The notes under the pieces: model-generated
Seen by the model: only the letters and a program-made list of their open reading frames with translations
Database searches by the model: none
What the model was told of the DNA's origin: nothing
Source: a bacterium
Lineage (GTDB): Bacteria > Patescibacteriota > Doudnabacteria > UBA920
Length of the DNA: 64,000 bases
Assembly: GCA_021825655.1 (NCBI GenBank)
Contig: JAKAGU010000001.1
Location: 50,358-114,357 of the forward strand
Reading direction: 5' to 3'
Part shown: piece after piece, positions 2,633-31,520 of the stretch
Layout of the letters: each line of letters opens with the position of its first letter
Numbering within the stretch: position 1 is the stretch's first letter
Program-made: the position numbers and the translations under genes

Positions 2633-3979
2633 CTATATAAACAGTTTATCCAGAATTAAATCCATCTCCTGTTTGAAGCCGTCTTTATCCTTAACTAAAG
2701 TCTCCATTTTTTCTACTGCATGCATTACAGTCGTGTGGTCACGCCCCCCAAAAAAATCACCAATTGAAGGGAAGGAGCTGTCCAGCTCCCGGCGAATAAG
2801 ATACATGGCTATCTGCCTTGGTTTTACAAATTCTTTTTTTCGCGACTGTTTTACCAGGTCTTCCATAGAGATGTTGTAGAATTCGGCGACCACCTCGGCA
2901 ATTTTTTTCGCTGAGGTGACTTTCTTTTTAGCCCCGACAATACTGGCCAAAATCCCTTTAGCCTGCTCCAAAACCAACCCCCGGTTATCCATTTGTTGAT
3001 AAATCGCCAGGCGGTTAAGTGCCCCTTCCAACTCTCGAACGTTATTTTGGATGTTTTCCGCGATATAAAAGAGGATTTCTTCCGGCATCTGCACCCCGCG
3101 TTTTTCCATTTTAGTGCGTAAAATTGCCATGCGGGTTTCGAGATCGGGCGCTTGGATATCCGCAATCATCCCCCACTCAAACCGGGAGATCAGCCGCTGT
3201 TCTATGGCCGGAATTTCTTTCGGCGGCCGGTCGGAGGTGATGATGATTTGCTTTCCGTTGTCGCGTAATTCGTTGAAAGTATGGAAAAATTCTTCCTGGG
3301 TGCCTTCCTTGCCCGCCAAAAATTGGATATCGTCTATAAGCAAAGCATCCACTTCACGGTAGGCTTTTTTAAAATCATCCATGCGCTTCTGGCTGATAGC
3401 GTTAATATAGTCGTTGGTAAATTTTTCACTTGTAACATATAGAATTTTTTTATGGCTGGATTCCAGAATGCGGTGCCCCACAGCCTGCATTAAATGGGTT
3501 TTACCTAAACCCACCCCGCCGTAAATGAAGAGCGGGTTGTATTGCGTGCCCGGATTTTTTGCCACAGCCTGGCTGGCTGCGTGGGCAAGCTCGTTATTTT
3601 TTCCGATTATCAGGGTTTCAAAAGTGTATTTTGGGTTTAAACCAGAGGTAAAAGCCGAGGGTCTCTCCTTGGTAAGGCCGGCACTCTCGGATTTTTTGAA
3701 CATATTGGTTTGCTGGCTGGCCTGTGTTGTGGGTTGGTTGCCAAGTTGGTATCTAATTTCTTTAATCTCTGGGGCAATCCCTTTCAGGCTTTTAAGCATT
3801 TCTTGGTGGTACTTAGCAGAAATCCAGTCGCGGTTGAAAGCGCTGGGTACGCCGATGATGATATGGTCCGCACCTCTTTCTAGGATGAGTGTGTTCTTAA
3901 ACCAGGTATTAAAGTTGGCCTTGCTCAGTGAAACTTCTAGACTGCCTAAGATTGCTTGCCAGAGCTGCTGATTAGTCAT
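2633..3979 (-). CDS. dnaA: Chromosomal replication initiator DnaA
   Basis: 448 aa with AAA+ Walker A ([10 protein letters not shown]) and the C-terminal DnaA DNA-binding signature. Confidence 0.95.
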
Positions 3980-6280: not shown

Positions 6281-7165
6281 TTAAGCCAGCGGGATGGTGT
6301 CTGAAATGTTTTCTTGGTGCGAAAAGTCTGTTTGCAGTTTTTTTACGTCTTCGGGCGCCATTGCCCAATCTAAAGCCCCCAGGTTTTCTTTTAAATGTTC
6401 CTGGTTGCTGGTTTTGGTCAGGGTAACAACGTTGGGTTGCATAACTAGCCAGTTGATGGCAATTTGGGCAGGTGTTTTTTTGTATTTGCCACACAACTTT
6501 TGAATCAAAGGTTCGCTGTCCAGGTCGGTTTTTCCTCGGGTAAGACTGCCCATGCCCAGCGGGCGCCAAGCAACCAGAAAAATGTCATTCGCCTGGCAAT
6601 ATTCAAGCAGTCCGGACTTTTCAGGTTCTCTAAACCTTACGCTGTAGTGGACCTGGGTTGCCTCAATAGGGTGCCGGGCCAGGTCCTGGGCCTGTTTGGT
6701 GTGCTCAAGGTTGAAATTACTGATACCCAGGTGTTTAATCAGCCCTTCATCAGCCAGCTCGTCCAAAGCTTTCATGCACTCCCCAATTTTTTCCTCTCCG
6801 GGGTAGCGGTGGAGGTAATAAAGGTCCAAGTAATCCGTGCCCAGTCTTTTTAAACTTGCCAAAGCCGCTTTTTTGATGTCCTGGTAGTTTAAGTGGGTCT
6901 GTTGCGCTTTGGAAGAAATAAATAGTTTTTTTCTGTCCTGGCCTAAAATTGCCTGGCCCACAAATTTTTCAGCCTGCCCGGCGGCGTAAACTTCGGCCGT
7001 ATCGATTGCGGTAATGCCTGAGTTAAGGGCTGATTTTATGGCCCCAATGTCTTTTAAATCGTCGTTATTTGGATCAGGTTCGTTGCGCCCGCCCATTGCC
7101 CAAGTGCCCAGTCCTAGCACGGGCAGCTCAAGTCCGGTTTTAAGTTTTTTTATGGGGATACTCAC
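6281..7165 (-). CDS. Aldo/keto reductase family oxidoreductase
   Basis: 294 aa. The N-terminus (LPVLGLGTWAMGG) and overall pattern are typical of the AKR family. Confidence 0.8.
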   Translation of the reverse strand: MSIPIKKLKTGLELPVLGLGTWAMGGRNEPDPNNDDLKDIGAIKSALNSGITAIDTAEVYAAGQAEKFVGQAILGQDRKKLFISSKAQQTHLNYQDIKKAALASLKRLGTDYLDLYYLHRYPGEEKIGECMKALDELADEGLIKHLGISNFNLEHTKQAQDLARHPIEATQVHYSVRFREPEKSGLLEYCQANDIFLVAWRPLGMGSLTRGKTDLDSEPLIQKLCGKYKKTPAQIAINWLVMQPNVVTLTKTSNQEHLKENLGALDWAMAPEDVKKLQTDFSHQENISDTIPLA

Positions 7166-7168
7166 GGT

Positions 7169-8359
7169 CTAGATGATTAAGGAGAGGGTGAGCCAAAATA
7201 TTAACGCCAAATCATTTTTAAAATATGGGTTGTCAATCTGGCCTTGGACCAGCAGGGTTATTATAAACAGCACCGCTCCTAAGCCGAAGGCGTTCCGGCG
7301 GTTTTTAACGCCCTGGTACAGCGCCAGAACAGATAAGCCAATAAAGCTTAACATGCCCAACAGTCCGGTTTCCACCCAAAAATCCAAGAAGATGTTGTGG
7401 GGGAAATTGTGCGTGTCCAGGTTGGGGTCGGTGTTGAGCTGCGGCCATTTTGTGGCAAAGCCGGTTAATCCCAAGCCGAAAATCGGTGACTGTTTTACGC
7501 CCTTAAGCCCTGTATTCCAGAGCGATAGGCGCGATACGGCCGATTTCTCGCCCAGGAAAGGCAAGATTACTCGATAACGGAGGTTGGGGGTAATTAATAC
7601 TATACCCGCCAGCGCCACGCCCGCCAGCAAAGCTGCGTACCTGAGCTTTTTATCTCCAGCGATTAGCACGTACAAGCCTATCCCCACTGCCAAACCCAAC
7701 CAGCCGGCCCGGGACATGGACAAAAATAACCCGACTGCTCCGAGCAGCCAGAACATAAAAAGTTTTTGGGTTAGCGGCAGGTGTTTGTAGCTGCGCACCC
7801 GTTCCATGAGGTCGGGCACCAGAAAAGCGAGCAATGGGGCGCTAAATAAAGCATAAAAATTTGGGTGCCCAAAAAAACCCAGTGCGCGCTTGGGTTCTAC
7901 GGCATTGCCCCAGTATTGGGGCGGCAGGCCGAAAAGCGTAAAGTATTGGACAATTGACCAGACGCCCATAATTCCCAGCAGCAAATAGGCGGCGTAAGTC
8001 CAAGCGTTTTTTGTGCCAGGGTTTCTGTGGAAAAGGTAGCCAAATAAAAAGAACAGGCTGATAGGCTGGAAAATAAGCACGATAAATTGCCCCAGGTTTT
8101 TTTGGGAAAAGCCCGGAACAAAAAGCGAGATCGCGCCTGCCAAAAAAAACAGGCCTACCAGCCCCAGCCACCATTTATTTAAGGACTTCAGCCAGAACCA
8201 AAAATCAGCCAGTTTTTGCTGCCGGGCAAAGTAATAGGCGAAACATAGCCAAACCAAGGCCACCCAAACCATTAACAGGTTTAGGGGCACTGGCCCGATG
8301 CTAAAACGTAATGCGTAAGCGGGGGCAAGGAGTAGGGTACAAAAGATTAAGTAAGACAT
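7169..8359 (-). CDS. O-antigen ligase (Wzy_C) family polytopic membrane protein
   Basis: 396 aa with about 10-12 predicted TM helices and a Wzy_C-like central loop (SMSRAGWLGLAVG). Tightly packed with the AKR and PBP1A genes, 3-4 nt gaps. Confidence 0.6.
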   Translation of the reverse strand: MSYLIFCTLLLAPAYALRFSIGPVPLNLLMVWVALVWLCFAYYFARQQKLADFWFWLKSLNKWWLGLVGLFFLAGAISLFVPGFSQKNLGQFIVLIFQPISLFFLFGYLFHRNPGTKNAWTYAAYLLLGIMGVWSIVQYFTLFGLPPQYWGNAVEPKRALGFFGHPNFYALFSAPLLAFLVPDLMERVRSYKHLPLTQKLFMFWLLGAVGLFLSMSRAGWLGLAVGIGLYVLIAGDKKLRYAALLAGVALAGIVLITPNLRYRVILPFLGEKSAVSRLSLWNTGLKGVKQSPIFGLGLTGFATKWPQLNTDPNLDTHNFPHNIFLDFWVETGLLGMLSFIGLSVLALYQGVKNRRNAFGLGAVLFIITLLVQGQIDNPYFKNDLALIFWLTLSLII

Positions 8360-8362
8360 GGT

Positions 8363-11245
8363 TTAAGGCACAGAGACTTTAATTTTAGGTGTGGTCAGGC
8401 CGGTGCTGGTGCGGGCAAATACCGAATATTCACCGCTGCCCGGCGACTTGGTCCAATCAATGGTGTATTGGTAGCGGCCGCTGAAGTTGCCCAGGTTTTG
8501 CGCCTGGCCAATTGGTTTGGGTGTGCCGCCTTTCGTGTTTTGGTAATAGAAATTTACGGCGTCGTAGTTCTCGGCGCTTTCAGCTTTCAAGCTGACCGGG
8601 AAAAGAATGAGGCTGGAGCCGCTGGGCTCGGTGATGGTAATGGGTTCGTTCAGAGCAAACTTAAGATTTATGCTGGTGTCCGCGGTTTTGTTGTAAACGT
8701 CCGTGGCGCGCACGGCCAAAATGTGCGTACCATCGCTGTACTTTTTATTTATATCTAGAATGTACGGGCTGGCAGTGAGGGTTGCCGCCTCCTGGCCGTC
8801 CACAGATATGGTAACTTTGCTTAACTGGTTTTCGGAACTGGCCGAAACCACAACCCGCAAAGGCAGGCTGGAAATAGTCTGGCCGTCAACGGGCTCGACA
8901 ATGTCCACGCTAGGCGGTCCGCCGGGCGTACCGTTGTTGCTCTGGGGATTGTAGGTAATGGTGCTGGGCGGGTAGACATAACCCTGCGCCTGAGCCCAGG
9001 CGATAACCGGGTTCTCCCAATCGGGATTGTCCGGTCGCTCGCTGTGAAAGACGGTAAAATTTTTGTAGACAATCTTGTCTTTGGGTGTGTCCTGGGTCGC
9101 GGGCTGGTCTGTGGTGCTGTCGTATGGCAGGGAGATGTGCACGTCGTCATACTGCGTGGGGGCATTGTAGCTGGCAAACGTTTCCACTTTGGTGGAGGGG
9201 GTTAAGCCGGTGGGGAGCTTGCCGGAAACCGCATCCACAGTTACTTGCTGAATGCCGTCCGGAGCTTTAAATTCTTCTGCGGGCTTGCCTTTTAAAGCCT
9301 CTTTCATAAAACGGTTCCAAATGGGCGCGGCCACCAAAACGCCGTCCGCGCCTTTTTTCATGTCTGTATTGGGCGTGCCGGCTCCGGGGTTGTTACCTGC
9401 CCATACGCCGGCAACCAAACTGGGAGTAAAGCCCATAGTCCAGCCATCGTGCCAGTTCTGGGTGGTGCCGGTCTTGGCAGCCACTGGCCGGTCAGGCAGG
9501 GTGAGCGGCGAATTAGGGCCAAAGACATAAGTGCGCGCAGCATTATCGCTCATTACGTTTGTCAGCAGGTACACCGCTTCAGGGTTGAGTATGGGCTGGC
9601 TGTGCTGCTGGTATTCTTCCAGGGTGTTGCCGTCCTTGTCCTCAATTTTTAATATAAAAGCTTTTTCGTTTTTTACTCCCCCGTTGGCCAGGGTGGCATA
9701 AGCAGAGACGTGGTCGATAAGCTTAACTTCACAACCGCCTAAAACCAGAGATAAGCCGCAGTCGGCCATGGGACTGGTGATGCCTAAGCTTCGCGCGGTT
9801 TGGACCACATTATCGACGCCGACCAAAGACAGGGTTTTGACGGCCGGAATATTTAAGCTGCCGGCCAAAGCCTGGCGCATGGATACCGGGCCGCGCTGTT
9901 TGCCGTCGTAGTCTTGCGGTTTGTATTCCTTGTCCCCGAATTTGCCGAAATTGGTTTCTACGTCCATCAGCATGGTGGCGGGGGCGTATTTGTAATCAGG
10001 GCCAAAGGCGGTCACGTATGCGTAGGGTTTAAAGCTGCTGCCGGGCTGGCGCGGCGCAATGGCTACATTGTAATTGGGTTCAAAAAGGCAGTCCCGCCCG
10101 GGCGTGCAATTTTTTGGCTCCGGGTCGCCAAAGTAATCCTTACTGCCCACCATGGCCAGAATTTGGCCGGTCTTCGGGTCTTCAGCCACCAAGGCGGCGT
10201 TATAAGCGTTGTATTTTTTTGCGTTCGCTTCGGCGCCTTGCTTCACTGCGTCTTCAGCAATTTTTTGCAGGTTTAAGTCCAGGGTGGTATAAACTTTTAA
10301 TCCGCCTTCTTCCAGAGTTTTTTCACCGTACTTTTTAGCCAGATAGTCCTGGACCATCATGGAAAAATGAGGGGCCTGGATGCCGGTGGTGACGTTCAAG
10401 AAGGCCACCTCTTCCTGCCGGGCTTGGGTTTCCTGGTCTTTGGTGATGTAGCCCTGGTCGCGCATTAGCGAGAGGATAGTGTTTTTGCGGTTGTCCAAAG
10501 CCTGGCGGTTGGGACCAAAAGGATTGTAATAAGTGGGGGCCTGGGGCATGGCGGCCAGGTACGCGCTCTCCGCCAAATCCAGGTCCTTTGCCGACTTGTT
10601 AAAATAGGACCGGCTGGCCGCCTCTACGCCGTAAGCGTTGCGGCCGTAAGGGATTTCATTCAGGTACATCTGCAGTACCTGGTCTTTGGTAAAGCGCGAA
10701 TCTATCGCCACGGCCAAAATCAATTCCCGGATTTTTCGGTCCCAGGATTTGTTGTTGGTAAGAATCGCGTTTTTTACCAGCTGTTGGGTAATTGTGCTGC
10801 CGCCCTGGGCTTTGCGGCCGCTGAGTACATCCACCACTGCCGAACGCAGAATCCCGGTTATAGAAATCCCCCCATGTTTGTAAAAGTCCTTATCTTCCAC
10901 CGCAATCGTGGCGTGTTTTAAGTTGTCCGTAATTTGGTCAAGGTTAACCTGGGTGCGCTTAATTTCGCCATGAATTTCATACAGCAGTTGCCCGTCGCGC
11001 GCAAAAATTTTTGTTGATTCAGCCACGTTGCGGTCCATGAGCCGGTTCGGGTCGGGCAAATCTTTGGCATAATATAAAAATAGGATGGCAATGCCCAATA
11101 CGCCCAAAGCAGCGAGTCGGAACAGCCAGGTTAAGGTTTTTCGCCAGTTCCAGCGGAAAGGTAATTTAGCTTTTCCCGTGGTGCGGCTTTTAACCACCGG
11201 CTTGGACGCGGGCCGGTCTTTGGTTTTAAACGAGTAAATTTTCAT
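8363..11245 (-). CDS. Penicillin-binding protein 1A (bifunctional transglycosylase/transpeptidase) with a roughly 300 aa C-terminal extension
   Basis: 960 aa with an N-terminal TM anchor, GT51 motifs (EDKDFYKHGGI...GGSTITQQLVKN), a transpeptidase domain, and a Ser/Thr-rich beta-rich C-terminal tail. Confidence 0.85.
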   Translation of the reverse strand: MKIYSFKTKDRPASKPVVKSRTTGKAKLPFRWNWRKTLTWLFRLAALGVLGIAILFLYYAKDLPDPNRLMDRNVAESTKIFARDGQLLYEIHGEIKRTQVNLDQITDNLKHATIAVEDKDFYKHGGISITGILRSAVVDVLSGRKAQGGSTITQQLVKNAILTNNKSWDRKIRELILAVAIDSRFTKDQVLQMYLNEIPYGRNAYGVEAASRSYFNKSAKDLDLAESAYLAAMPQAPTYYNPFGPNRQALDNRKNTILSLMRDQGYITKDQETQARQEEVAFLNVTTGIQAPHFSMMVQDYLAKKYGEKTLEEGGLKVYTTLDLNLQKIAEDAVKQGAEANAKKYNAYNAALVAEDPKTGQILAMVGSKDYFGDPEPKNCTPGRDCLFEPNYNVAIAPRQPGSSFKPYAYVTAFGPDYKYAPATMLMDVETNFGKFGDKEYKPQDYDGKQRGPVSMRQALAGSLNIPAVKTLSLVGVDNVVQTARSLGITSPMADCGLSLVLGGCEVKLIDHVSAYATLANGGVKNEKAFILKIEDKDGNTLEEYQQHSQPILNPEAVYLLTNVMSDNAARTYVFGPNSPLTLPDRPVAAKTGTTQNWHDGWTMGFTPSLVAGVWAGNNPGAGTPNTDMKKGADGVLVAAPIWNRFMKEALKGKPAEEFKAPDGIQQVTVDAVSGKLPTGLTPSTKVETFASYNAPTQYDDVHISLPYDSTTDQPATQDTPKDKIVYKNFTVFHSERPDNPDWENPVIAWAQAQGYVYPPSTITYNPQSNNGTPGGPPSVDIVEPVDGQTISSLPLRVVVSASSENQLSKVTISVDGQEAATLTASPYILDINKKYSDGTHILAVRATDVYNKTADTSINLKFALNEPITITEPSGSSLILFPVSLKAESAENYDAVNFYYQNTKGGTPKPIGQAQNLGNFSGRYQYTIDWTKSPGSGEYSVFARTSTGLTTPKIKVSVP

Positions 11246-11308
11246 AACTTAATTATAACGGTTTTCCTCTAAAAATGGTATAATGCAGAAAGCATTAAGA
11301 ACTATGCC

Positions 11309-12475
11309 ATGGACAACATTCAAGAACTGCTTAGCCGGGGGGTGGAAGAGGTTATCGAACGTGAAAAACTGGAAGCTGTGCTGAAGGGCAAAAAGAAACT
11401 CAGAGTCAAGCTGGGGATTGACCCAACCAGCCCCAATATCCACATTGGCCGGGCGGTGGTGCTGTGGAAGCTGCGTGCTTTTCAAGAATTGGGCCACAAG
11501 GTGATATTTATTGTGGGGGATTTTACCGGCCTGATCGGCGACACCTCGGACAAGGATGCGGAACGGCCCATGCTTTCGGAAAAACAGATTGCGGTTAACC
11601 TGAAAACTTACTTTGAGCAGGCCTATAAAATTTTGGACAAGAAAAAAACTGAAGTTTATTACAATTCCAAATGGCTGAAGAAGCTTGGTTTTGCGGAAAT
11701 CGGCCGCCTGGCCGACTTATTCAGCTTGCACGAGTTTGAAGCCCGGGAAAATATTGCCAAACGCCTCAAATCCGGCAAGCGCGTGTCTTTGCGCGAGCTG
11801 CTGTATCCCCTGATGCAGGGCTATGACAGCGTGGCCGTGAAAGCTGATGTGGAATTGGGCGGTACCGACCAACGGTTTAACCTGTTGGCGGGCCGGGTTA
11901 TCCAGCCCGCATATGGGCAGTCTCCCCAAAATATTTTGACCATGACTTTAATGGAGGGCACGGATGGCCGCAAGATGTCGTCTTCTTGGGGCAACACTAT
12001 TAACATTACTGCCGAACCCAATGATATGTTCGGCAAGGCCATGTCCATTCCGGACGACTTGATAAAAAAATATTTTATCTTAGCTACGCGCGTGCCTCTT
12101 GCTGCGATAGACGAGATTGTCCGCAGCAATTCCAACCCGCGTGACCAAAAAATGCGCCTGGCCCTTGAAATTACCAGATTGTACCACGGCGCAAAAAAAG
12201 CCGAGATTGCAAAACAGGCTTTCGTAAGCCAATTTAGCAAAGGCGAATTGCCTGAAGATATCAAAACAAAGACATTAAAGGCCGGCAGATACCAGCTTTT
12301 GGATATTTTAATTGAAACAGGCATAGTGGGCAGCAAGTCCGAAGGACGGCGGTTGTTTGAACAAAACGGCGTTAAGTTAAACCAAAAAACAACCAAAGAC
12401 GCTTTGGTGGTTTTGGATGGAAAGAGTGAGATTTTGCTGCAGGTGGGAAAAAGAAAATTTCTTCGCGTAAAATAA
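11309..12475 (+). CDS. tyrS: Tyrosine--tRNA ligase
   Basis: 388 aa class I aaRS with a HIGH-type motif (PNIHIGRAV), a KMSSS variant of KMSKS, and a C-terminal S4-like domain. Confidence 0.8.
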   Translation: MDNIQELLSRGVEEVIEREKLEAVLKGKKKLRVKLGIDPTSPNIHIGRAVVLWKLRAFQELGHKVIFIVGDFTGLIGDTSDKDAERPMLSEKQIAVNLKTYFEQAYKILDKKKTEVYYNSKWLKKLGFAEIGRLADLFSLHEFEARENIAKRLKSGKRVSLRELLYPLMQGYDSVAVKADVELGGTDQRFNLLAGRVIQPAYGQSPQNILTMTLMEGTDGRKMSSSWGNTINITAEPNDMFGKAMSIPDDLIKKYFILATRVPLAAIDEIVRSNSNPRDQKMRLALEITRLYHGAKKAEIAKQAFVSQFSKGELPEDIKTKTLKAGRYQLLDILIETGIVGSKSEGRRLFEQNGVKLNQKTTKDALVVLDGKSEILLQVGKRKFLRVK

Positions 12476-17698: not shown

Positions 17699-17774
17699 GC
17701 GCGCGTAGCTCAGTTGGTAGAGCGGACGTCTTATACACGTCTGGTCCCAGGTTCGAGTCCTGGCGCGCGCACCA
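17699..17774 (+). tRNA. tRNA-Ile (anticodon UAU), CCA encoded
   Basis: Folded by hand: acceptor gcgcgcg/cgcgcgc, D-arm gctc-agttggta-gagc, anticodon stem gacgt/acgtc, loop cTTATac (U33, anticodon TAT, A37), T-arm ccagg-ttcgagt-cctgg, then ACCA. Confidence 0.8.
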
Positions 17775-27343: not shown

Positions 27344-28225
27344 TCAAACTTTTTCGCCCCGCAAGGCTCGATAGAGCACGTAGCCGTAAACGAGCGTGAG
27401 CGGAGTGAGTACAAAAGATATAAGATTGCTTAATAAAGGGATAAATGAGGTGATAATTGCGATTCCGTAAACTATGACCCCGATCAAAAGGTACTTTTTA
27501 AACACCTCCCATAACCTGCCTTGGACATAGGCTTTGCTTTTTTTAAGCGCAACCGTGTTGTAAAGGTTTTCGCAGATCACGACAAACATTGCCTGGCTGA
27601 ACCAGAGGGCAAAAAGTATGCCCGGAATGATAAAAAGTATCATGCCGCCGGCGATTGCCAGTCCAGCTAGCAGGCTGGTGGTGAAGAAAGTGCCCAAGTG
27701 GGGTTGGGCCCGTTTAAAGGCTTCCTGGAAAGTCAGGTTTTCCTGATGGTCTTTTATTACGAAAATTTGGGCCACCGAGCTCCAGACTCCGAAATAAACC
27801 AGCACGACCAACATTATCAGAAGCAGGATAGCGCCGGTGCCAACAGAGGTAAAAAAGCCGCCATGGCCGGTTCTGGTCAGGAACACTCCTCCGCCGAACA
27901 GCAGGCCGAAAACCAGCATGATGGCCCCAGGCACCGCAGTGATGCCCAAAAGCAACCAGAATTTTTCCTGGTAAATTTTCCAGGCAGTTTTAAGGATTTC
28001 CGTGGCCGGGGGGAGGGCCGCTTCTCCGGCCGGGCCAGCAGGAGCTGCGCCCAGACCCAGCTGGATGTCGGCTTCTTGCCAACCGGACTGTCTTAAGGCT
28101 TGGGCAATTTGTTCGCTGGTTTTGCCCGCCTGTTGTTGCCGCTTGATGTAATCAAGCATTTCCGGGGTTGTCATTTTAGTTTCGTTAAAGATAACTTTGT
28201 TCCAGTATAGCATTTTAACCAACAA
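27344..28225 (-). CDS. Hypothetical polytopic membrane protein with an N-terminal cytoplasmic ~35-aa GW-motif domain
   Basis: 293 aa. The likely true start is an internal ATG (MTTPEMLDYIKRQQQAGKTSEQIAQALRQSGWQEADIQ), followed by 5-6 TM helices. The N-terminal domain is homologous to the C-terminal tail of the protease at 15888..17516. Confidence 0.5.
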   Translation of the reverse strand: MLVKMLYWNKVIFNETKMTTPEMLDYIKRQQQAGKTSEQIAQALRQSGWQEADIQLGLGAAPAGPAGEAALPPATEILKTAWKIYQEKFWLLLGITAVPGAIMLVFGLLFGGGVFLTRTGHGGFFTSVGTGAILLLIMLVVLVYFGVWSSVAQIFVIKDHQENLTFQEAFKRAQPHLGTFFTTSLLAGLAIAGGMILFIIPGILFALWFSQAMFVVICENLYNTVALKKSKAYVQGRLWEVFKKYLLIGVIVYGIAIITSFIPLLSNLISFVLTPLTLVYGYVLYRALRGEKV

Positions 28226-28254
28226 AAAACACCTCTATGTAGAGATGCTTTTTG

Positions 28255-28328
28255 TGGAGCGGCTAAGGGGAATCGAACCCCTATCCTCTCCATGGCAAGG
28301 AGAAGTTCTACCATTGAACCATAGCCGC
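28255..28328 (-). tRNA. tRNA-Gly (anticodon GCC)
   Basis: Reverse complement folds as acceptor gcggcta/tagccgc, anticodon stem tctcc/ggaga with loop tTGCCat, T-arm agggg-ttcgatt-cccct, then TCCA. Confidence 0.85.
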
Positions 28329-28367
28329 AAGTAGAAAAATTATATCAAACGTACTGATTTTTTCAAA

Positions 28368-28442
28368 TGGTGCCTCGGGTCAGAATCGAACTGACGACGC
28401 CAGCCTCTTCAGGGCTGCGCTCTGCCACTGAGCTACCGAGGC
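28368..28442 (-). tRNA. tRNA-Phe (anticodon GAA)
   Basis: Reverse complement folds as acceptor gcctcgg/ccgaggc, D-arm gctc-agtggca-gagc, anticodon stem cagcc/ggctg with loop cTGAAga, T-arm gtcag-ttcgatt-ctgac, then ACCA. Confidence 0.85.
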
Positions 28443-28468
28443 GCAATAGTATTTGTGTAAGTTTACAC

Positions 28469-28545
28469 TGGTGGGCGGTATAGGATTCGAACCTATGACC
28501 TCCTCGGTGTAAACGAGGCGCTCTAACCAGCTGAGCTAACCGCCC
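28469..28545 (-). tRNA. tRNA-Val (anticodon UAC)
   Basis: Reverse complement folds as acceptor gggcggt/accgccc, D-arm gctc-agctggtta-gagc, anticodon stem cctcg/cgagg with loop tTTACac, T-arm atagg-ttcgaat-cctat, then ACCA. Confidence 0.85.
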
Positions 28546-28563
28546 TCGCGCCCACATAATATA

Positions 28564-28881
28564 TCAAAACATGACGTTTTTGGCAAGACTCTCAGAGAGT
28601 CCGGTTAAGGCTTCGATGCTATCCTCGGGCACGCTTTTACAGCGGGCGCGGGCGCCGCAATCCTGGCAAACATGGAGAATGTGGTATTCGCCCTTTTGGT
28701 ATTCTACGCCCACCGGCTCCATCATGCCGCCGCAAGGGTTGCCCCGGTCGCCGGGGTAATTGTCCACGTGCCGGCTCCACAGGCATTTGGGGCAGTGGTT
28801 GGTGTAGCCGTTGCCTTTGACTTTGGTTTTGCAATGTCCGCAAACAAAGTCTTCAATGGTACGTTGGAATTTTTTAGGCAT
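28564..28881 (-). CDS. RNHCP-domain zinc-ribbon protein
   Basis: 105 aa with CxxC...NHCPKC...CxxC cysteine pairs (FVCGHCKTKV, YTNHCPKCLW, CQDCGARARC) matching the RNHCP motif. The gene is GC-rich, about 57-60%. Confidence 0.6.
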   Translation of the reverse strand: MPKKFQRTIEDFVCGHCKTKVKGNGYTNHCPKCLWSRHVDNYPGDRGNPCGGMMEPVGVEYQKGEYHILHVCQDCGARARCKSVPEDSIEALTGLSESLAKNVMF

Positions 28882-29033
28882 GTTTATATTTTACCAAAAT
28901 ACTTATAAATGTTAAGGAGCGCGAGTCCTCTGCTTTTTTGGGCAGAGAAATCGCGCTCCTGGTTGTAGGGTTTGCTGTACGTACGGTGTCGCCGGCTGCT
29001 TCCTTGTCAGCCGCTAGCCGCGCAGGTTGGTGG

Positions 29034-29798
29034 TTAGACTGCGCTTGGTGCTTCCATTGCAGCCTTGAGTTCCGGCCAGTGATCTTTGGGTTTTTTCACC
29101 CATTGGCCGGCTGCGATGTACCTTGCAACCATCGGGTCGTCCTGCCGGTACTGAGCGGTTGGAATCCACTTGTAGCAGAGGATGGGCACGCTGGTCCCGT
29201 CCGGGCATTCGAACAGATCTTTGCCGGAACGGTTGAACGCGCAGGTGATGGCCACCAGTTTGGCGCCGAAGCTTTGGATGACTTCCCAAGCTTTGCCCGT
29301 GGTTGACAGGTTGTTGACCACGTCCTCGCTGAGGACGGCGAGGTCGCCCGAGAAGAGTTCGTGCCGATCCATAATGAGGTGCGATTTTTCCCGGCTAGTT
29401 GCCGTCTCGGCCTCGTCAACCTTCTTTTCCATGAACACGGTGCGGCGGTTGGCCAGCCGACCGATGTCCCCGGAAAGCAGTATCCCGCCCATGGGTGCGC
29501 CGATGACCGCGTCGAAATCAATTTCTCCGCCGGCAAGCATCCCAAGGATGCCTCTGGCGAAGAGGTCGCGGACATGGGGGAAGCGTTCAGCCCGGGCAAA
29601 GTTGTAGTACACATCGCCGACGTACTGAAGCTGATGGCCGTGGCCGTCGTCGTAACGGCCGGCGTAGCCGACCAGGGGCCCGGCGTAGTTGCCTGCCGAA
29701 TCCTTGGGGCACTGGTAGTAGCCGTCGCATTTGGTCAGAATATCCAGAGCTTCGTCGTCCTGGTTAATCTGCGCAGCGAGGGTGGCTTTTCGATGCAT
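29034..29798 (-). CDS. Type I phosphoribosyltransferase-like protein (orotate phosphoribosyltransferase-like)
   Basis: 254 aa with a PRPP-binding-loop-like motif (DLAVLSEDVVNNLSTTGKA) and a PRTase-like core (AVIGAPMGGILLSG). Translationally coupled to the upstream gene (TAAccATG). Confidence 0.55.
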   Translation of the reverse strand: MHRKATLAAQINQDDEALDILTKCDGYYQCPKDSAGNYAGPLVGYAGRYDDGHGHQLQYVGDVYYNFARAERFPHVRDLFARGILGMLAGGEIDFDAVIGAPMGGILLSGDIGRLANRRTVFMEKKVDEAETATSREKSHLIMDRHELFSGDLAVLSEDVVNNLSTTGKAWEVIQSFGAKLVAITCAFNRSGKDLFECPDGTSVPILCYKWIPTAQYRQDDPMVARYIAAGQWVKKPKDHWPELKAAMEAPSAV

Positions 29799-29800
29799 GG

Positions 29801-30619
29801 TTAGTCGTCTCCTTCGCTGTGTTGGTTAACGGCTTCGAGGATGTTGTCCGCTACGAGTTCGGCGGCCGCCACTACGTCTGTCGCGCCGGTAATATCCCGG
29901 CCCACGACTACGCCATTGGCGCCGTCACGGATGGAGTTGCCCGGGGCGCTGACTGCCTTTTGGTCTTGCTTGCTGGAGCCAGGCAGACGCACGCCGGGGG
30001 TGTAGATGAGAAACAGCGGTCCGCAGGCTGCGCGGATTGCCGTAACCTCCAGGGGTGAGGCAATGACGCCATCGCAGCCATGTCGTTGGGCCAGCTTGGC
30101 AAGCCGGACCACAATTTCCAGGCGGCGCGGCTCAGTATCGTCTTCGGCTTTGAGCCCGAGTTGGACGAGGTCGTCTTCACCCAGGCTGGTGAGCAGGGTC
30201 ACTGCAATCAGCAGGGGCTTCTGTTCCAGGCCGAGCTGGGCCGATATCTCATCCACGGCCTGTCGTGCCGCCTTGAGGGCAGGCGGCCCGGCAAAAGCGT
30301 GGACGTTGAACATGAGCGGCTGGAGCCGACAGATGGCCTTGCTGGCGCCGGCAACGGTGTTGCCGATGTCCGCGATTTTGCCATCCACGAACTCGAGGTT
30401 GTTGAAGGCGGAAAACAGCGTCCGCAGTCGGACCAGGGTATGGAAAGCGCTGTCCTGGCCGGTCGTGATGAGGGTTGAGAACATGGAGTAAATGAACTCA
30501 AAGCCGATCTTGAATCCGCCGACGTAGCCCTTGAGCTTGGCTACGAGCTCGATCGCCTTCTCCACGTCATTAACGTCGAGTGCTACAATAACGCGCTCGC
30601 GCGCGCCTTGTCTGGTCAT
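29801..30619 (-). CDS. Orotidine 5'-phosphate decarboxylase-like protein (type 2-like)
   Basis: Start chosen at the internal ATG (MTRQGARERVIVALDV...). Active-site motif DxKxxDIG.T (FVDGKIADIGNTV) and N-terminal VIVALDV...GGFKIG are diagnostic of the OMPDC fold. Gene GC about 60-63%. Confidence 0.7.
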   Translation of the reverse strand: MTRQGARERVIVALDVNDVEKAIELVAKLKGYVGGFKIGFEFIYSMFSTLITTGQDSAFHTLVRLRTLFSAFNNLEFVDGKIADIGNTVAGASKAICRLQPLMFNVHAFAGPPALKAARQAVDEISAQLGLEQKPLLIAVTLLTSLGEDDLVQLGLKAEDDTEPRRLEIVVRLAKLAQRHGCDGVIASPLEVTAIRAACGPLFLIYTPGVRLPGSSKQDQKAVSAPGNSIRDGANGVVVGRDITGATDVVAAAELVADNILEAVNQHSEGDD

Positions 30620-30728
30620 GATTGTTCTCTCTTTCACGTGAAATGAAAAGAAGACACGACTTGTACAGCTTATCGTGCCTCCTTTAAGGTGGGGCAATTA
30701 TATACCCTAAAGACCTTTTAATCAAGGC

Positions 30729-30757
30729 TTGAAAAAAGGTTTGGATTTGGGTATAAT
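30729..30757 (+). promoter_or_regulatory. Sigma70-type promoter for tRNA-Leu(GAG)
   Basis: TTGAAA, 17 nt spacer, TATAAT about 20 nt upstream of the tRNA 5' end. Confidence 0.5.
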
Positions 30758-30777
30758 TGGTAAGCAATTTTGCATGA

Positions 30778-30864
30778 GCCCAGGTGGCGGAATTGGTATA
30801 CGCACTACCTTGAGGTGGTAGCGCTCGCAAGGGCATGGAGGTTCGAGTCCTCTCCTGGGCACCA
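30778..30864 (+). tRNA. tRNA-Leu (anticodon GAG), class II
   Basis: Acceptor gcccagg/cctgggc, anticodon stem ctacc/ggtag with loop tTGAGgt, long variable arm cgctcgcaagggcat, T-arm ggagg-ttcgagt-cctct, ACCA. Confidence 0.85.
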
Positions 30865-30929
30865 AAATACTCCGGTAATTCGGAGTGTTTTTAATTTCAA
30901 GGTATAATATAGGTAATTAAACTTATCTT

Positions 30930-31490
30930 ATGTATAACATCCCGGTAATCTTAGGCAGTGTGCGCGAAGGCCGCCGGAGCCTCGCTCCAGCCCAGTATCT
31001 TGTTAAGAAGCTGCAAGGCCTGGGCCACCAGAGCCAGCTGGTGGACTTTAAAGAAATGCCGTTGCCGTTTTATAACGCACCCACCGTGCCCGTGGTCTAC
31101 TATAAAACCGCTTACCCTGACCCCAATGTCCAGAGGTGGAGCGAGCTTGCCCGTTCAGCCCACGGTTTTATTATTGTGACGCCCGAATATAACCACGGTT
31201 ATCCGGCTGTGTTGAAAAACGCCCTGGATTGGCTGTATTTGGAATTTGAGCATAAGGCGTTTGGTTTGGTCGGGGTGTCCAACGGGTCCGTGGCCGGAGC
31301 CAGGGTCATTGAGCAGCTCAGGACCGTGATAGAAAATTTTGGCGCACTGGCTGTAAGGGAAACCGTAATGCTGGGACCGATTGATAAATATTTTGATGCA
31401 ACTGGCAAGCTTTTGGACGATGCGCTGGATAAGCGCGTAACCGGGCTTATTGAGAGTGTGGTTTGGTGGTTAAAAAAATTGCAAGCATAA
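30930..31490 (+). CDS. NAD(P)H-dependent FMN reductase (flavodoxin-like fold)
   Basis: 186 aa with family motifs (ILGSVREGR...IVTPEYNHGYPAVLKNALDWL). Confidence 0.75.
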   Translation: MYNIPVILGSVREGRRSLAPAQYLVKKLQGLGHQSQLVDFKEMPLPFYNAPTVPVVYYKTAYPDPNVQRWSELARSAHGFIIVTPEYNHGYPAVLKNALDWLYLEFEHKAFGLVGVSNGSVAGARVIEQLRTVIENFGALAVRETVMLGPIDKYFDATGKLLDDALDKRVTGLIESVVWWLKKLQA

Positions 31491-31520
31491 AAAGACCCCG
31501 CCGCCGGCGGGGTCTTTTTA
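31489..31520. terminator. Bidirectional intrinsic terminator
   Basis: aaaaGACCCCGCCGccggCGGCGGGGTCttttta between the FMN reductase gene and nrnA. Confidence 0.7.

Follow-up and report, generated by a model that had tools for sequence, protein, structure and literature searches.

A putative pyrF-pyrE operon of Doudnabacteria in a conserved tRNA-flanked slot, with genes probably replaced repeatedly by foreign versions

How did a GC-rich pair of pyrimidine genes come to lie between two groups of tRNA genes in a bacterium belonging to the candidate phyla radiation (CPR)? The question is raised by a 64,000-nucleotide stretch of contig JAKAGU010000001.1, hereafter called the window, whose host is Candidatus Doudnabacteria (CPR/Patescibacteria), since database homologues point there. 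On its minus strand, the window carries pyrF, the gene for a putative orotidine-5'-phosphate (OMP) decarboxylase (OMPDC), followed by a gene for a divergent orotate phosphoribosyltransferase (OPRT), which we call E*, and by a gene for an RNHCP-domain protein. The original prediction had described these three genes as the cargo of a horizontally acquired genomic island. Our analyses favour another answer: pyrF and E* probably form an operon in a conserved Doudnabacteria slot, the genes of which have repeatedly been replaced by foreign versions, and do not represent a classical tRNA island. The function is probably that of an ordinary pyrF-pyrE pair, the OPRT variant is uncurated, and the xenologous replacement is unusually dense.

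The slot has the gene order IF2, RbfA, DHH/NrnA, FMN reductase, tRNA-Leu(GAG), pyrF, pyrE, RNHCP, the tRNA-Val/Phe/Gly cluster and, further on, tRNA-Leu(TAA)/Cys. In the window, ARAGORN and Rfam agree on tRNA-Gly(GCC) at 28255-28328, tRNA-Phe(GAA) at 28368-28442 and tRNA-Val(TAC) at 28469-28545, all on the minus strand, and on tRNA-Leu(GAG) at 30778-30864 on the plus strand, which forms the upstream border of the slot and is transcribed away from pyrF. These positions are those initially described, and ORF calling confirmed the three genes between the tRNAs, all of them on the minus strand and all accounted for. The same slot with the same flanks was found in the related loci L001 to L003, L004/5, L009, L010, L021, L026 and L089/90, down to 75% IF2 identity. 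The tRNA-Val/Phe/Gly cluster occupies the same position in L001 to L004, L089, L010 and L091, and tRNA-Leu(GAG) the same place and orientation in L001 to L004, L089, L010, L021 and L026. L091, the most distant of the relatives, shares the backbone slot and its RNHCP gene but is devoid of pyrF and pyrE, and carries tRNA-Leu(GAG) in inverted orientation. Because the slot is syntenic in related contigs, the flanking tRNAs are ancestral neighbours, not attachment sites.

Searches for the hallmarks of integration agree with this. No integrase or recombinase was found among the ORFs between the tRNAs, and the flanking ORFs are conserved backbone genes. A look for attachment (att) sites, as direct repeats matching the tRNA 3' ends, had been suggested, and a search for direct and inverted repeats in 27800-31300 yielded short matches only. 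The single att candidate is a 13-nt repeat with a 92% match (12/13) between 28922-28934 and 30844-30856, in the T-arm of tRNA-Leu, and it lies on the wrong (5') side of that tRNA; no duplicated tRNA 3' end was detected at the far border. Classical tRNA-targeted insertion is therefore unsupported, as there is neither integrase nor att site, tRNA-Leu points away and the synteny is conserved. The same tRNA arrangement with housekeeping flanks in every related contig examined speaks against the tRNA-flanked island as it had been conceived.

Within the slot, the pyrF genes of the related loci fall into three classes, with 33-41% identity between classes: class A in the window, L089, L004 and L010, class B in L001 and L026, and class C in L009 and L021. 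The E* genes form class a (window, L001, L009 and L010) and class b (L089, L026 and L021), with 41-48% identity between them. All six of the six possible combinations of pyrF and E* classes occur, in addition to a class A pyrF with a third type of phosphoribosyltransferase (PRT) in L004 and to the empty slot of L091. Thus, L001 and L026 are 99% identical in IF2, 95% in pyrF and 46% in E*, and the corresponding identities between the window and L089 are 89, 95 and, at the amino acid level, 46%.

Comparison of the window with L089 also delimits the exchanged segments. Their blastn colinearity breaks at 29831, some 30 nt before the pyrF stop codon, and resumes at 29022, 12 nt past the E* stop; the replaced segment (29023-29830) thus comprises the last ~30 nt of pyrF and the whole of E*. 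The junction TAACCATG and the hairpin downstream of E* are conserved between the two loci. In addition, sliding-window identity revealed a recent recombination tract of ~670 nt with 97-100% identity (30230-30900), which runs from ~30900 to ~30230 and extends over tRNA-Leu and the leader into pyrF, of which it includes the 5' half, next to neighbouring sequences of 55-83% and 80-89% identity. The difference at 4-fold synonymous sites between the window and L089 is 0.18 for pyrF, as against 0.42-0.62 for IF2, orf280, DHH, FMN reductase and orf233, and the short RNHCP and RbfA genes, with ~35 sites each and values of 0.31 and 0.34, are intermediate. Likewise, between L001 and L026 it is 0.07 for pyrF and 0.30-0.40 for the flanks. 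Horizontal exchange thus appears to be real and to operate gene by gene within a conserved slot. This is the part of the proposed horizontal acquisition that we retain, in view of the allele mosaic and the recombination tract, and the single insertion of a tRNA-flanked island is the part that we do not.

We propose that unrelated versions of pyrF and pyrE would displace one another gene by gene within the slot, most likely by DNA uptake and homologous recombination. Recombination might be anchored on the conserved leader and tRNA, on the junction between pyrF and pyrE and on the intergenic region downstream, with occasional double-copy intermediates and occasional loss of the pair. A neighbour-joining tree placed the three pyrF classes in three separate parts of the PyrF tree, in agreement with best-match identities: class A with ordinary non-CPR PyrF proteins, class B with sequences from Kaiserbacteria and Paceibacterota and the canonical PyrF of L004, and class C with other CPR sequences. 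Three of the allele combinations were each seen in more than one independent assembly (L001/2/3, L089/90 and L004/5), which argues against chimeric contigs.

Double-copy states were found at L004, L006 and L023. In L004, a 949-kb Doudnabacteria-like contig, a prs-pyrE(Thermus type)-pyrF-pyrD cluster lies on one strand and a class A pyrF with a 211-residue, PRK13809-like OPRT on the other (6503-11441). These back-to-back pairs represent either redundancy or a displacement intermediate. L006 (6221-7974) and L023 (8242-9854) harbour two tandem OMPDC genes before E*, one of subfamily 2 and one of subfamily 1 in L006, and are candidate displacement intermediates.

These same loci might be read as hidden paralogy, with ancestral pyrF and pyrE paralogues at the locus, differential loss and no transfer, the GC content and low synonymous divergence being due to selection. 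The two pyrE/pyrF pairs side by side in L004 and the two OMPDC genes before E* in L006 and L023 are in line with that scenario. Nevertheless, L001 and L026 come from nearly the same organism and have E* proteins only 46% identical, so that both classes would have to have been retained until very recently. Furthermore, the synonymous divergence of pyrF is three to five times below that of the larger flanking genes in two independent pairs, the 97-100% tract is discrete with sharp edges, and each pyrF class has closer relatives outside the clade than within. We therefore regard paralogy without transfer as unlikely, and we retain displacement within the slot as the preferred reading.

The GC content of the locus was the other reason to suspect an island. 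The window has 48.9% GC and the block 28564-30697 has 58.1%; the highest-GC stretch of 2.1 kb in the window falls here, with 58.4% (mean 48.9, standard deviation (sd) 3.0). E* has 59.3% GC with a GC content at third codon positions (GC3) of 0.729, and pyrF 60.9% with a GC3 of 0.737. For the 51 ORFs that we treated as genes, the mean is 49.7% GC (sd 3.4) with a GC3 of 0.591 (sd 0.058), and the RNHCP gene, at 54.1% GC and a GC3 of 0.651, is about one sd above the gene mean. The compositional block is thus the pyrF/E* pair without RNHCP: as computed gene by gene, the shift that had been noted for all three genes holds for the pair (59-61% against 48.9%), and RNHCP is barely shifted.

A similar excess was found in the relatives. 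The pair exceeds its flanks by 12 points in the window, 12 in L001, 13 in L026 and 9 in L010; it has 60-61% GC in L089, compared with 47-52% in the adjoining genes, and 56-60% in L004, compared with a locus mean of 44.8%. The excess, in the order of 10 to 13 points, is present in every relative, irrespective of allele class. Over 71 loci of the E* family its median is +6.5 points, with positive values in 87% of them, and the GC3 of E* exceeds that of the flanking genes by 8.6 points on average (68 loci). It falls to zero in high-GC hosts. The GC excess is thus a feature that recurs in these genes when the CPR host is AT-rich. Because it occurs in all relatives and classes and vanishes at high host GC, it does not mark a single recent donor, and the donor signature that had been read into it no longer holds. 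GC-biased gene conversion at a hot spot of recombination, circulation of the genes in a pool of higher GC content, or selection may account for the excess.

A further gene for nucleotide synthesis was observed in some of these loci. A PurF-like amidophosphoribosyltransferase is encoded upstream of IF2 in L001 (1553-2941) and L091 (92-1516), is GC-rich in L001 (52% vs 42%), and is absent from the corresponding place of the window. Perhaps the nucleotide-synthesis genes of the Doudnabacteria clade are, as a group, variable and shifted in GC.

The third gene of the supposed cargo, at 28564-28881 on the minus strand, codes for a zinc-ribbon protein of 105 residues that matches the RNHCP family PF12647 with 93.3 bits (cut-off 24; E 9e-27). 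More than 1100 homologues were found, mostly in Patescibacteria. The identity of the RNHCP protein tracks that of the flanks, with 86% between the window and L089 and 92% between L001 and L026. A promoter-like site with an extended TG (TTAACA-16-TAAAAT, 28888-28915, minus strand), a pattern match from a consensus scan, precedes the gene. A literature search found nothing on RNHCP biology. We considered and rejected RNHCP as a functional partner of the pair: it is adjacent to pyrF and pyrE only in the Doudnabacteria-like clade, is kept without them, and has unrelated neighbours in Parcubacteria (L092). RNHCP thus appears to be a backbone neighbour with its own promoter-like site, not cargo; it follows the flanks, is barely GC-shifted and stays in L091 without the pair.

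Past the tRNA-Val/Phe/Gly cluster, L091 (1-12318; GCA_016788665.1) harbours a GIY-YIG fragment, an OLD/AAA_15-TOPRIM (Gabija-like) gene and an Mrr_cat/nSTAND3 gene. The presence of these defence-type genes after the tRNA cluster suggests that the region around these tRNAs is also a variable defence-gene hot spot.

What, then, remains of a classical genomic island, that is, a block of RNHCP, PRT-like and OMPDC-like genes recently inserted by the tRNAs from a high-GC donor? The pair is the strongest compositional outlier of the window and sits between tRNA genes, one Doudnabacteria genome has the slot without it (L091), and class A pyrF groups with ordinary non-CPR PyrF proteins at 42-48% identity, compared with 25-38% to the PyrF proteins beside E* in other CPR. 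Nevertheless, all the other relatives, down to 75% IF2 identity, have the same tRNA-flanked arrangement, no integrase was found, and the sole repeat, with 12 of 13 nt matching, lies on the 5' side of tRNA-Leu. Moreover, RNHCP is not compositionally deviant and is retained in the slot that lacks the pair. The GC excess, for its part, is common to all classes and hosts and partly scales with host GC. Such an island is very unlikely, and it is already contradicted as regards its being recent and its having a three-gene cargo.

If the genes of the slot are exchanged in place, what do they do? The pyrF gene lies at 29801-30619 on the minus strand. Its likely start is the ATG at 30619, which gives a class A protein of 272 residues, rather than the upstream TTG at 30697, because its homologues have 266-272 residues. 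The protein matches PF00215 with 142.4 bits (cut-off 27; E 3e-41) and TIGR01740 with 131.6 bits, above the cut-off of 92.3. It scores 173.7 bits on the strict equivalog NF001273, under the cut-off of 193, which the PyrF of the relative L010 reaches with 193.7 bits. The OMPDC motif D-x-K-x-x-D that had been recognized is indeed present, as FVDGKIADIGNTV, and the motifs FVDGKIADIGNT, ALD, FKIG, LTS, TPGVR, DQK and VVGRDIT align with those of the solved OMPDCs 3tr2, 3tfx and 27hh. In this alignment, every catalytic and phosphate-binding motif is intact. The window pyrF thus probably codes for a normal OMPDC, which would convert OMP to uridine 5'-monophosphate (UMP).

E* (29034-29798, minus strand; 254 residues, class a) is more divergent. 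Its scores are below the cut-offs of PF00156 (16.6 bits, cut-off 26.3), TIGR01367 (39.3 bits, cut-off 150.25) and TIGR00336 (17.7 bits, cut-off 106.8). Its AlphaFold2 model has a pLDDT of 94.2 and a pTM of 0.89, and a fold search with Foldseek returned as top matches the OPRTs 4paw, 2wns (human) and 2ps1 (yeast), with E values from 6e-10 to 2e-8. A profile of the E* family also retrieved 4paw (HP1257) first among the PDB sequences (E 2e-12). Most members of the family, of ~250 residues, come from CPR genomes, and a few from other bacteria, e.g. Lichenibacterium; the best match to the window E* in the species-representative genome collection is 75%. In our family alignment (A1), E* proteins have the private motifs GPLVGYAG, VGDVYYNFA, GAPMGG, EKK, EDVxNNxSTT, NRS, PTxQYRQDDPxVA and GNVVWKPK. 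Two acidic residues, E158-D159, show little or no variation, and the loop that follows reads NN-x-STT and not TTG-x-T. The conserved N189-R190 aligns with the N-R of HP1257, which is suggestive of orotate specificity.

The genomic context makes a pyrE role likely for E*. We counted neighbours using stop-to-stop ORFs and iterated hidden Markov models (HMMs) covering both PyrF subfamilies; an HMM iterated for 'canonical PyrE' was not used, as it had drifted onto E*. Of 70 loci with sufficient flanking sequence, 64 have an OMPDC-family gene adjoining E*, which belongs to subfamily 1 in 35 and to subfamily 2 in 29, and E* is fused in frame to an OMPDC at 13 loci. In L007 the operon order is pyrC-pyrB-pyrF-E*-pyrD, with E* in the pyrE position, and in L008 it is pyrC'(amidohydrolase)-pyrF-E*-pyrB-purF-purD-purN-purL. 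The cluster of Lichenibacterium minor (L056) comprises dihydroorotate dehydrogenase (DHODH)-like, OMPDC, E* and aspartate transcarbamoylase (ATCase)-like genes. No other pyrE is present in these operons, in which E* lies beside pyrB, pyrC or pyrD. In L004 the position after pyrF is taken by another type of OPRT, the 211-residue protein, which is PRK13809/TIGR00336-like. Based on the OPRT-like fold and the pyrE position in operons and fusions, we read E* as a divergent OPRT and tentatively include it in PyrE on the grounds of predicted fold and genomic context.

The Lichenibacterium cluster deserves a mention of its own. In L. minor RmlP026 (L056, 5121-11806), and also in L069, L078 and L085, PEP-mutase-like, amidohydrolase-like, DHODH-like, OMPDC, E* and ATCase-like genes occur together. 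Lichenibacterium-type Alphaproteobacteria are expected to hold a canonical pyrimidine pathway. The cluster may represent a second, paralogous pyrimidine-type pathway in free-living, high-GC Alphaproteobacteria.

From these properties, the pair would form an orotate-to-OMP-to-UMP module, in which E* would convert orotate and phosphoribosyl pyrophosphate (PRPP) to OMP, and PyrF would convert OMP to UMP and CO2. The assignment of the pair to the last two steps of UMP synthesis had already been proposed, and it is borne out by the intact pyrF motifs and by the fold and operon position of E*. Alternatively, E* might act on another base, with the OMPDC-like protein decarboxylating the product, in nucleotide modification, antimetabolite synthesis, defence or counter-defence. 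In favour of this, E* diverges too far to be recognized by the curated pyrE models, its PRPP loop is altered and it is extended at both the N- and the C-terminus; such genes occur beside apparently canonical pyrimidine genes in L004 and possibly in Lichenibacterium; and the turnover of the locus is typical of diversifying selection. Yet the pyrF product keeps all the catalytic and phosphate-binding motifs and passes the cut-off of the pyrF model, E* occurs with pyrB, pyrC and pyrD in operons that have no other pyrE, it partners both PyrF subfamilies, and in L004 another OPRT type takes the same position. Searches with PADLOC and PHROGs gave no match for any of the three proteins, at odds with the defence or counter-defence role that had been envisaged. 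A product other than UMP is thus highly improbable, and UMP formation remains the function that we assign.

The two genes appear to be expressed together. The pyrF stop codon TAA is followed by CC and by the ATG of E*, i.e. the TAAccATG junction that had been reported, with AGGAG 10 nt upstream of the E* start, and the genes are thus predicted to be translationally coupled. Upstream of pyrF, a consensus scan identified a promoter-like site TTGATT-17-TATAAT (30697-30725, minus strand), which is conserved in the relatives. It is followed by a leader (30632-30685, minus strand) recognized by conservation and folding, which consists of a 13-bp hairpin (30647-30685), a U-run and a 12-nt palindrome, TTTCACGTGAAA (30632-30643). 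The hairpin has a minimum free energy of -19.3 kcal/mol (z -2.2), and its 5' arm, AAAGGAGG, resembles a Shine-Dalgarno sequence. The leader is kept upstream of three unrelated pyrF classes, in eight of the eight related loci. Across these loci, pairing is kept in 96% of the cells of the hairpin alignment, compensatory changes occur at three pairs, and the covariation of 0.212, compared with 0.115 in shuffles, was matched by 1 of 500 shuffles. A scan of 27500-31500 with Rfam detected four tRNAs and sub-threshold noise, and no PyrR-binding or other known leader. The leader is likely a terminator-type attenuator or an operator, and it may be a new one for pyrimidine operons.

Directly 3' of pyrE, an inverted repeat with 19-nt arms, 89% complementary, could form a hairpin (28915-28960, minus strand). 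It is kept with compensatory changes in L089, even though the E* of L089 belongs to the other class. Its tail is only moderately T-rich and the consensus scan called no terminator; the hairpin is nevertheless likely to be the terminator of the pyrF-pyrE transcript. The region 29034-30725 of the minus strand would thus constitute a self-contained bicistronic pyrF-pyrE operon with a putative sigma-70-like promoter.

Where the orotate comes from is a further question. As had been observed, the window holds no other gene of de novo pyrimidine synthesis: no homologue of pyrB, pyrC, pyrD, prs, purF or purD was found across its 64 kb. The operon might thus serve salvage in a genome without pyrB, pyrC and pyrD, by converting host-derived orotate to UMP, a variant of the reading that we prefer. 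The absence of any other pyr gene within 64 kb is compatible with this, as are the E* loci, of which only ~15 of ~85 show any pyrB, pyrC or pyrD within 10 kb, and the report that de novo nucleotide pathways are missing from 93% of Patescibacteria genomes and that nucleotide-synthesis genes are scattered (bioRxiv 10.64898/2026.06.21.733656, 2026 preprint). On the other hand, bacteria often have their pyr genes dispersed, we identified no transporter for orotate, and L010 and L004 carry further genes of nucleotide synthesis in the slot (pyrC, matching TIGR00856 above its cut-off, in L010; pyrD and prs in L004), which points to a de novo context. A metagenome scan with the PyrC of L010 found matches of at most 48% identity only, in uninformative contexts, and our literature search for links between CPR and orotate, pyrE or pyrF retrieved general statements only, to the effect that de novo nucleotide synthesis is mostly missing in CPR and its genes scattered. 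Salvage has in our view slightly less than an even chance.

Several observations weigh against the operon with exchanged genes as we have presented it. The allele-class phylogeny comes from pairwise identities and from a neighbour-joining tree that was not bootstrapped. All the comparison sequences are metagenome assemblies, in which mis-assembly at tRNAs could in principle yield mosaics, and constraint acting at synonymous sites, and not transfer, could be part of the reason for the low synonymous divergence. The rest of the pyrimidine pathway is absent from the window. The window E* fails PF00156 and all the NCBIfam pyrE cut-offs, its PRPP loop reads EDVVNNLSTT and not the usual DD-x-x-T-T-G-x-T, and the OPRT activity of the whole E* family is predicted from fold and context. 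Lastly, L004 carries a second, canonical prs-pyrE-pyrF-pyrD cluster beside the slot, and the slot genes are therefore possibly not simply redundant there.

A bolder interpretation is that the pyrF-pyrE cassette is a recombination hot spot under diversifying or frequency-dependent selection, perhaps across CPR, with a locus of core metabolism behaving like a defence island. Versions shuffled in all combinations behind one leader, the presence or absence of the pair and the GC excess in every host would fit. Possible drivers are orotate or uracil analogues of hosts or competitors that OPRT and OMPDC would activate to toxic nucleotides, or dependence on host orotate. We consider this interpretation doubtful. 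If true, the uncurated E* family would mark an overlooked route of orotate-to-UMP salvage in organisms thought unable to make nucleotides.

The nucleotide supply of CPR/Patescibacteria is an open question, most of these bacteria being scored as lacking de novo synthesis. If annotation pipelines miss E* in the way that the window protein escapes the Pfam and NCBIfam cut-offs, surveys of pathway completeness would undercount pyrE. In many CPR genomes, E* occurs only as part of a pyrF-pyrE module with no other pyr gene within 10 kb, which points either to de novo genes dispersed over the genome or to salvage of orotate from the host. The locus offers a compact natural case of gene-by-gene xenologous replacement, with a recent tract still visible, in an uncultivated symbiont lineage. 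It also calls for caution, as a tRNA-flanked, GC-shifted position alone need not mean an integrase-type island.

Other features of the window are unrelated to the slot. Three minus-strand ORFs, 208-1302, 1307-2407 and 2633-3979, resemble recF, dnaN and dnaA, as judged from their N-terminal sequences alone; if these labels are correct, the window adjoins a replication origin. The cumulative GC skew climbs monotonically across the whole window with no switch. A tRNA-Ile with the anticodon UAU (tat) is encoded at 17699-17774 and is also present in the relative L011. Such tRNAs are uncommon in bacteria, in which AUA is usually read by a lysidine-modified CAU tRNA.

How does the locus compare with known systems? 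The protein encoded by pyrF belongs with PyrF subfamily 1 (PF00215, TIGR01740; solved structures 3tr2, 1eix and 1dbt), which it matches over its full length above both family cut-offs, and with which it shares the N-terminal Asp of ALD, the Lys of FKIG, D-x-K-x-x-D, LTS, TPG(V/I)R, DQK and V(V/I)GR. It is ~35 residues longer than typical members, has an insertion between the strand of the first Lys and the DxK strand, and reads DIGNT where DIPNT is usual.

For E*, the closest known relatives in structure are the OPRTs of the Thermus/Helicobacter type (TIGR01367; PDB 4PAW, HP1257), with a common type I PRT fold, hood and flexible loop. HP1257 is the best fold match (TM 0.76 on target) and aligns with E* both at the acidic pair that precedes the PRPP loop and at the N-R motif that follows the last core strand, but identity is only ~15-17% over the aligned structure. 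E* differs from it by a beta-rich N-terminal extension of ~40 residues (CxGYYxCPK...GPLVGYAG), a longer loop (EKK...RE.S...RH), the PRPP loop EDVxNNxSTT and a C-terminal extension of ~45 residues (PTxQYRQDDPxVA...GNVVWKPK..W). Many CPR relatives fuse OMPDC and E* with the decarboxylase at the N-terminus, like the bifunctional OMPDC/OPRT proteins (NF004034, PRK05500); the window pair differs from the latter in that it consists of separate, coupled genes and that its OPRT belongs to another subfamily. The eukaryotic UMP synthases (PDB 2wns, 3qw4) have the opposite domain order to that of the OMPDC-E* fusions.

With integrase-type tRNA islands, the slot shares the tRNA neighbourhood, the compositional deviation and the presence/absence polymorphism. 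It differs from them in having neither integrase nor att duplication, a tRNA orientation that is wrong for 3'-end insertion, and a conserved neighbourhood. The better likeness is with xenologous gene displacement in situ and mosaic operons, a concept that is said to have been developed by Omelchenko, Koonin and colleagues in Genome Biology in 2003. In both cases, genes of the same function and different origins swap at one operon position while their neighbours are inherited vertically. The slot stands apart by the unusual density of such events, with three pyrF classes, two E* classes, a third PRT and an empty state in one family-level clade, and it adds a persistent GC excess and a leader conserved across the classes.

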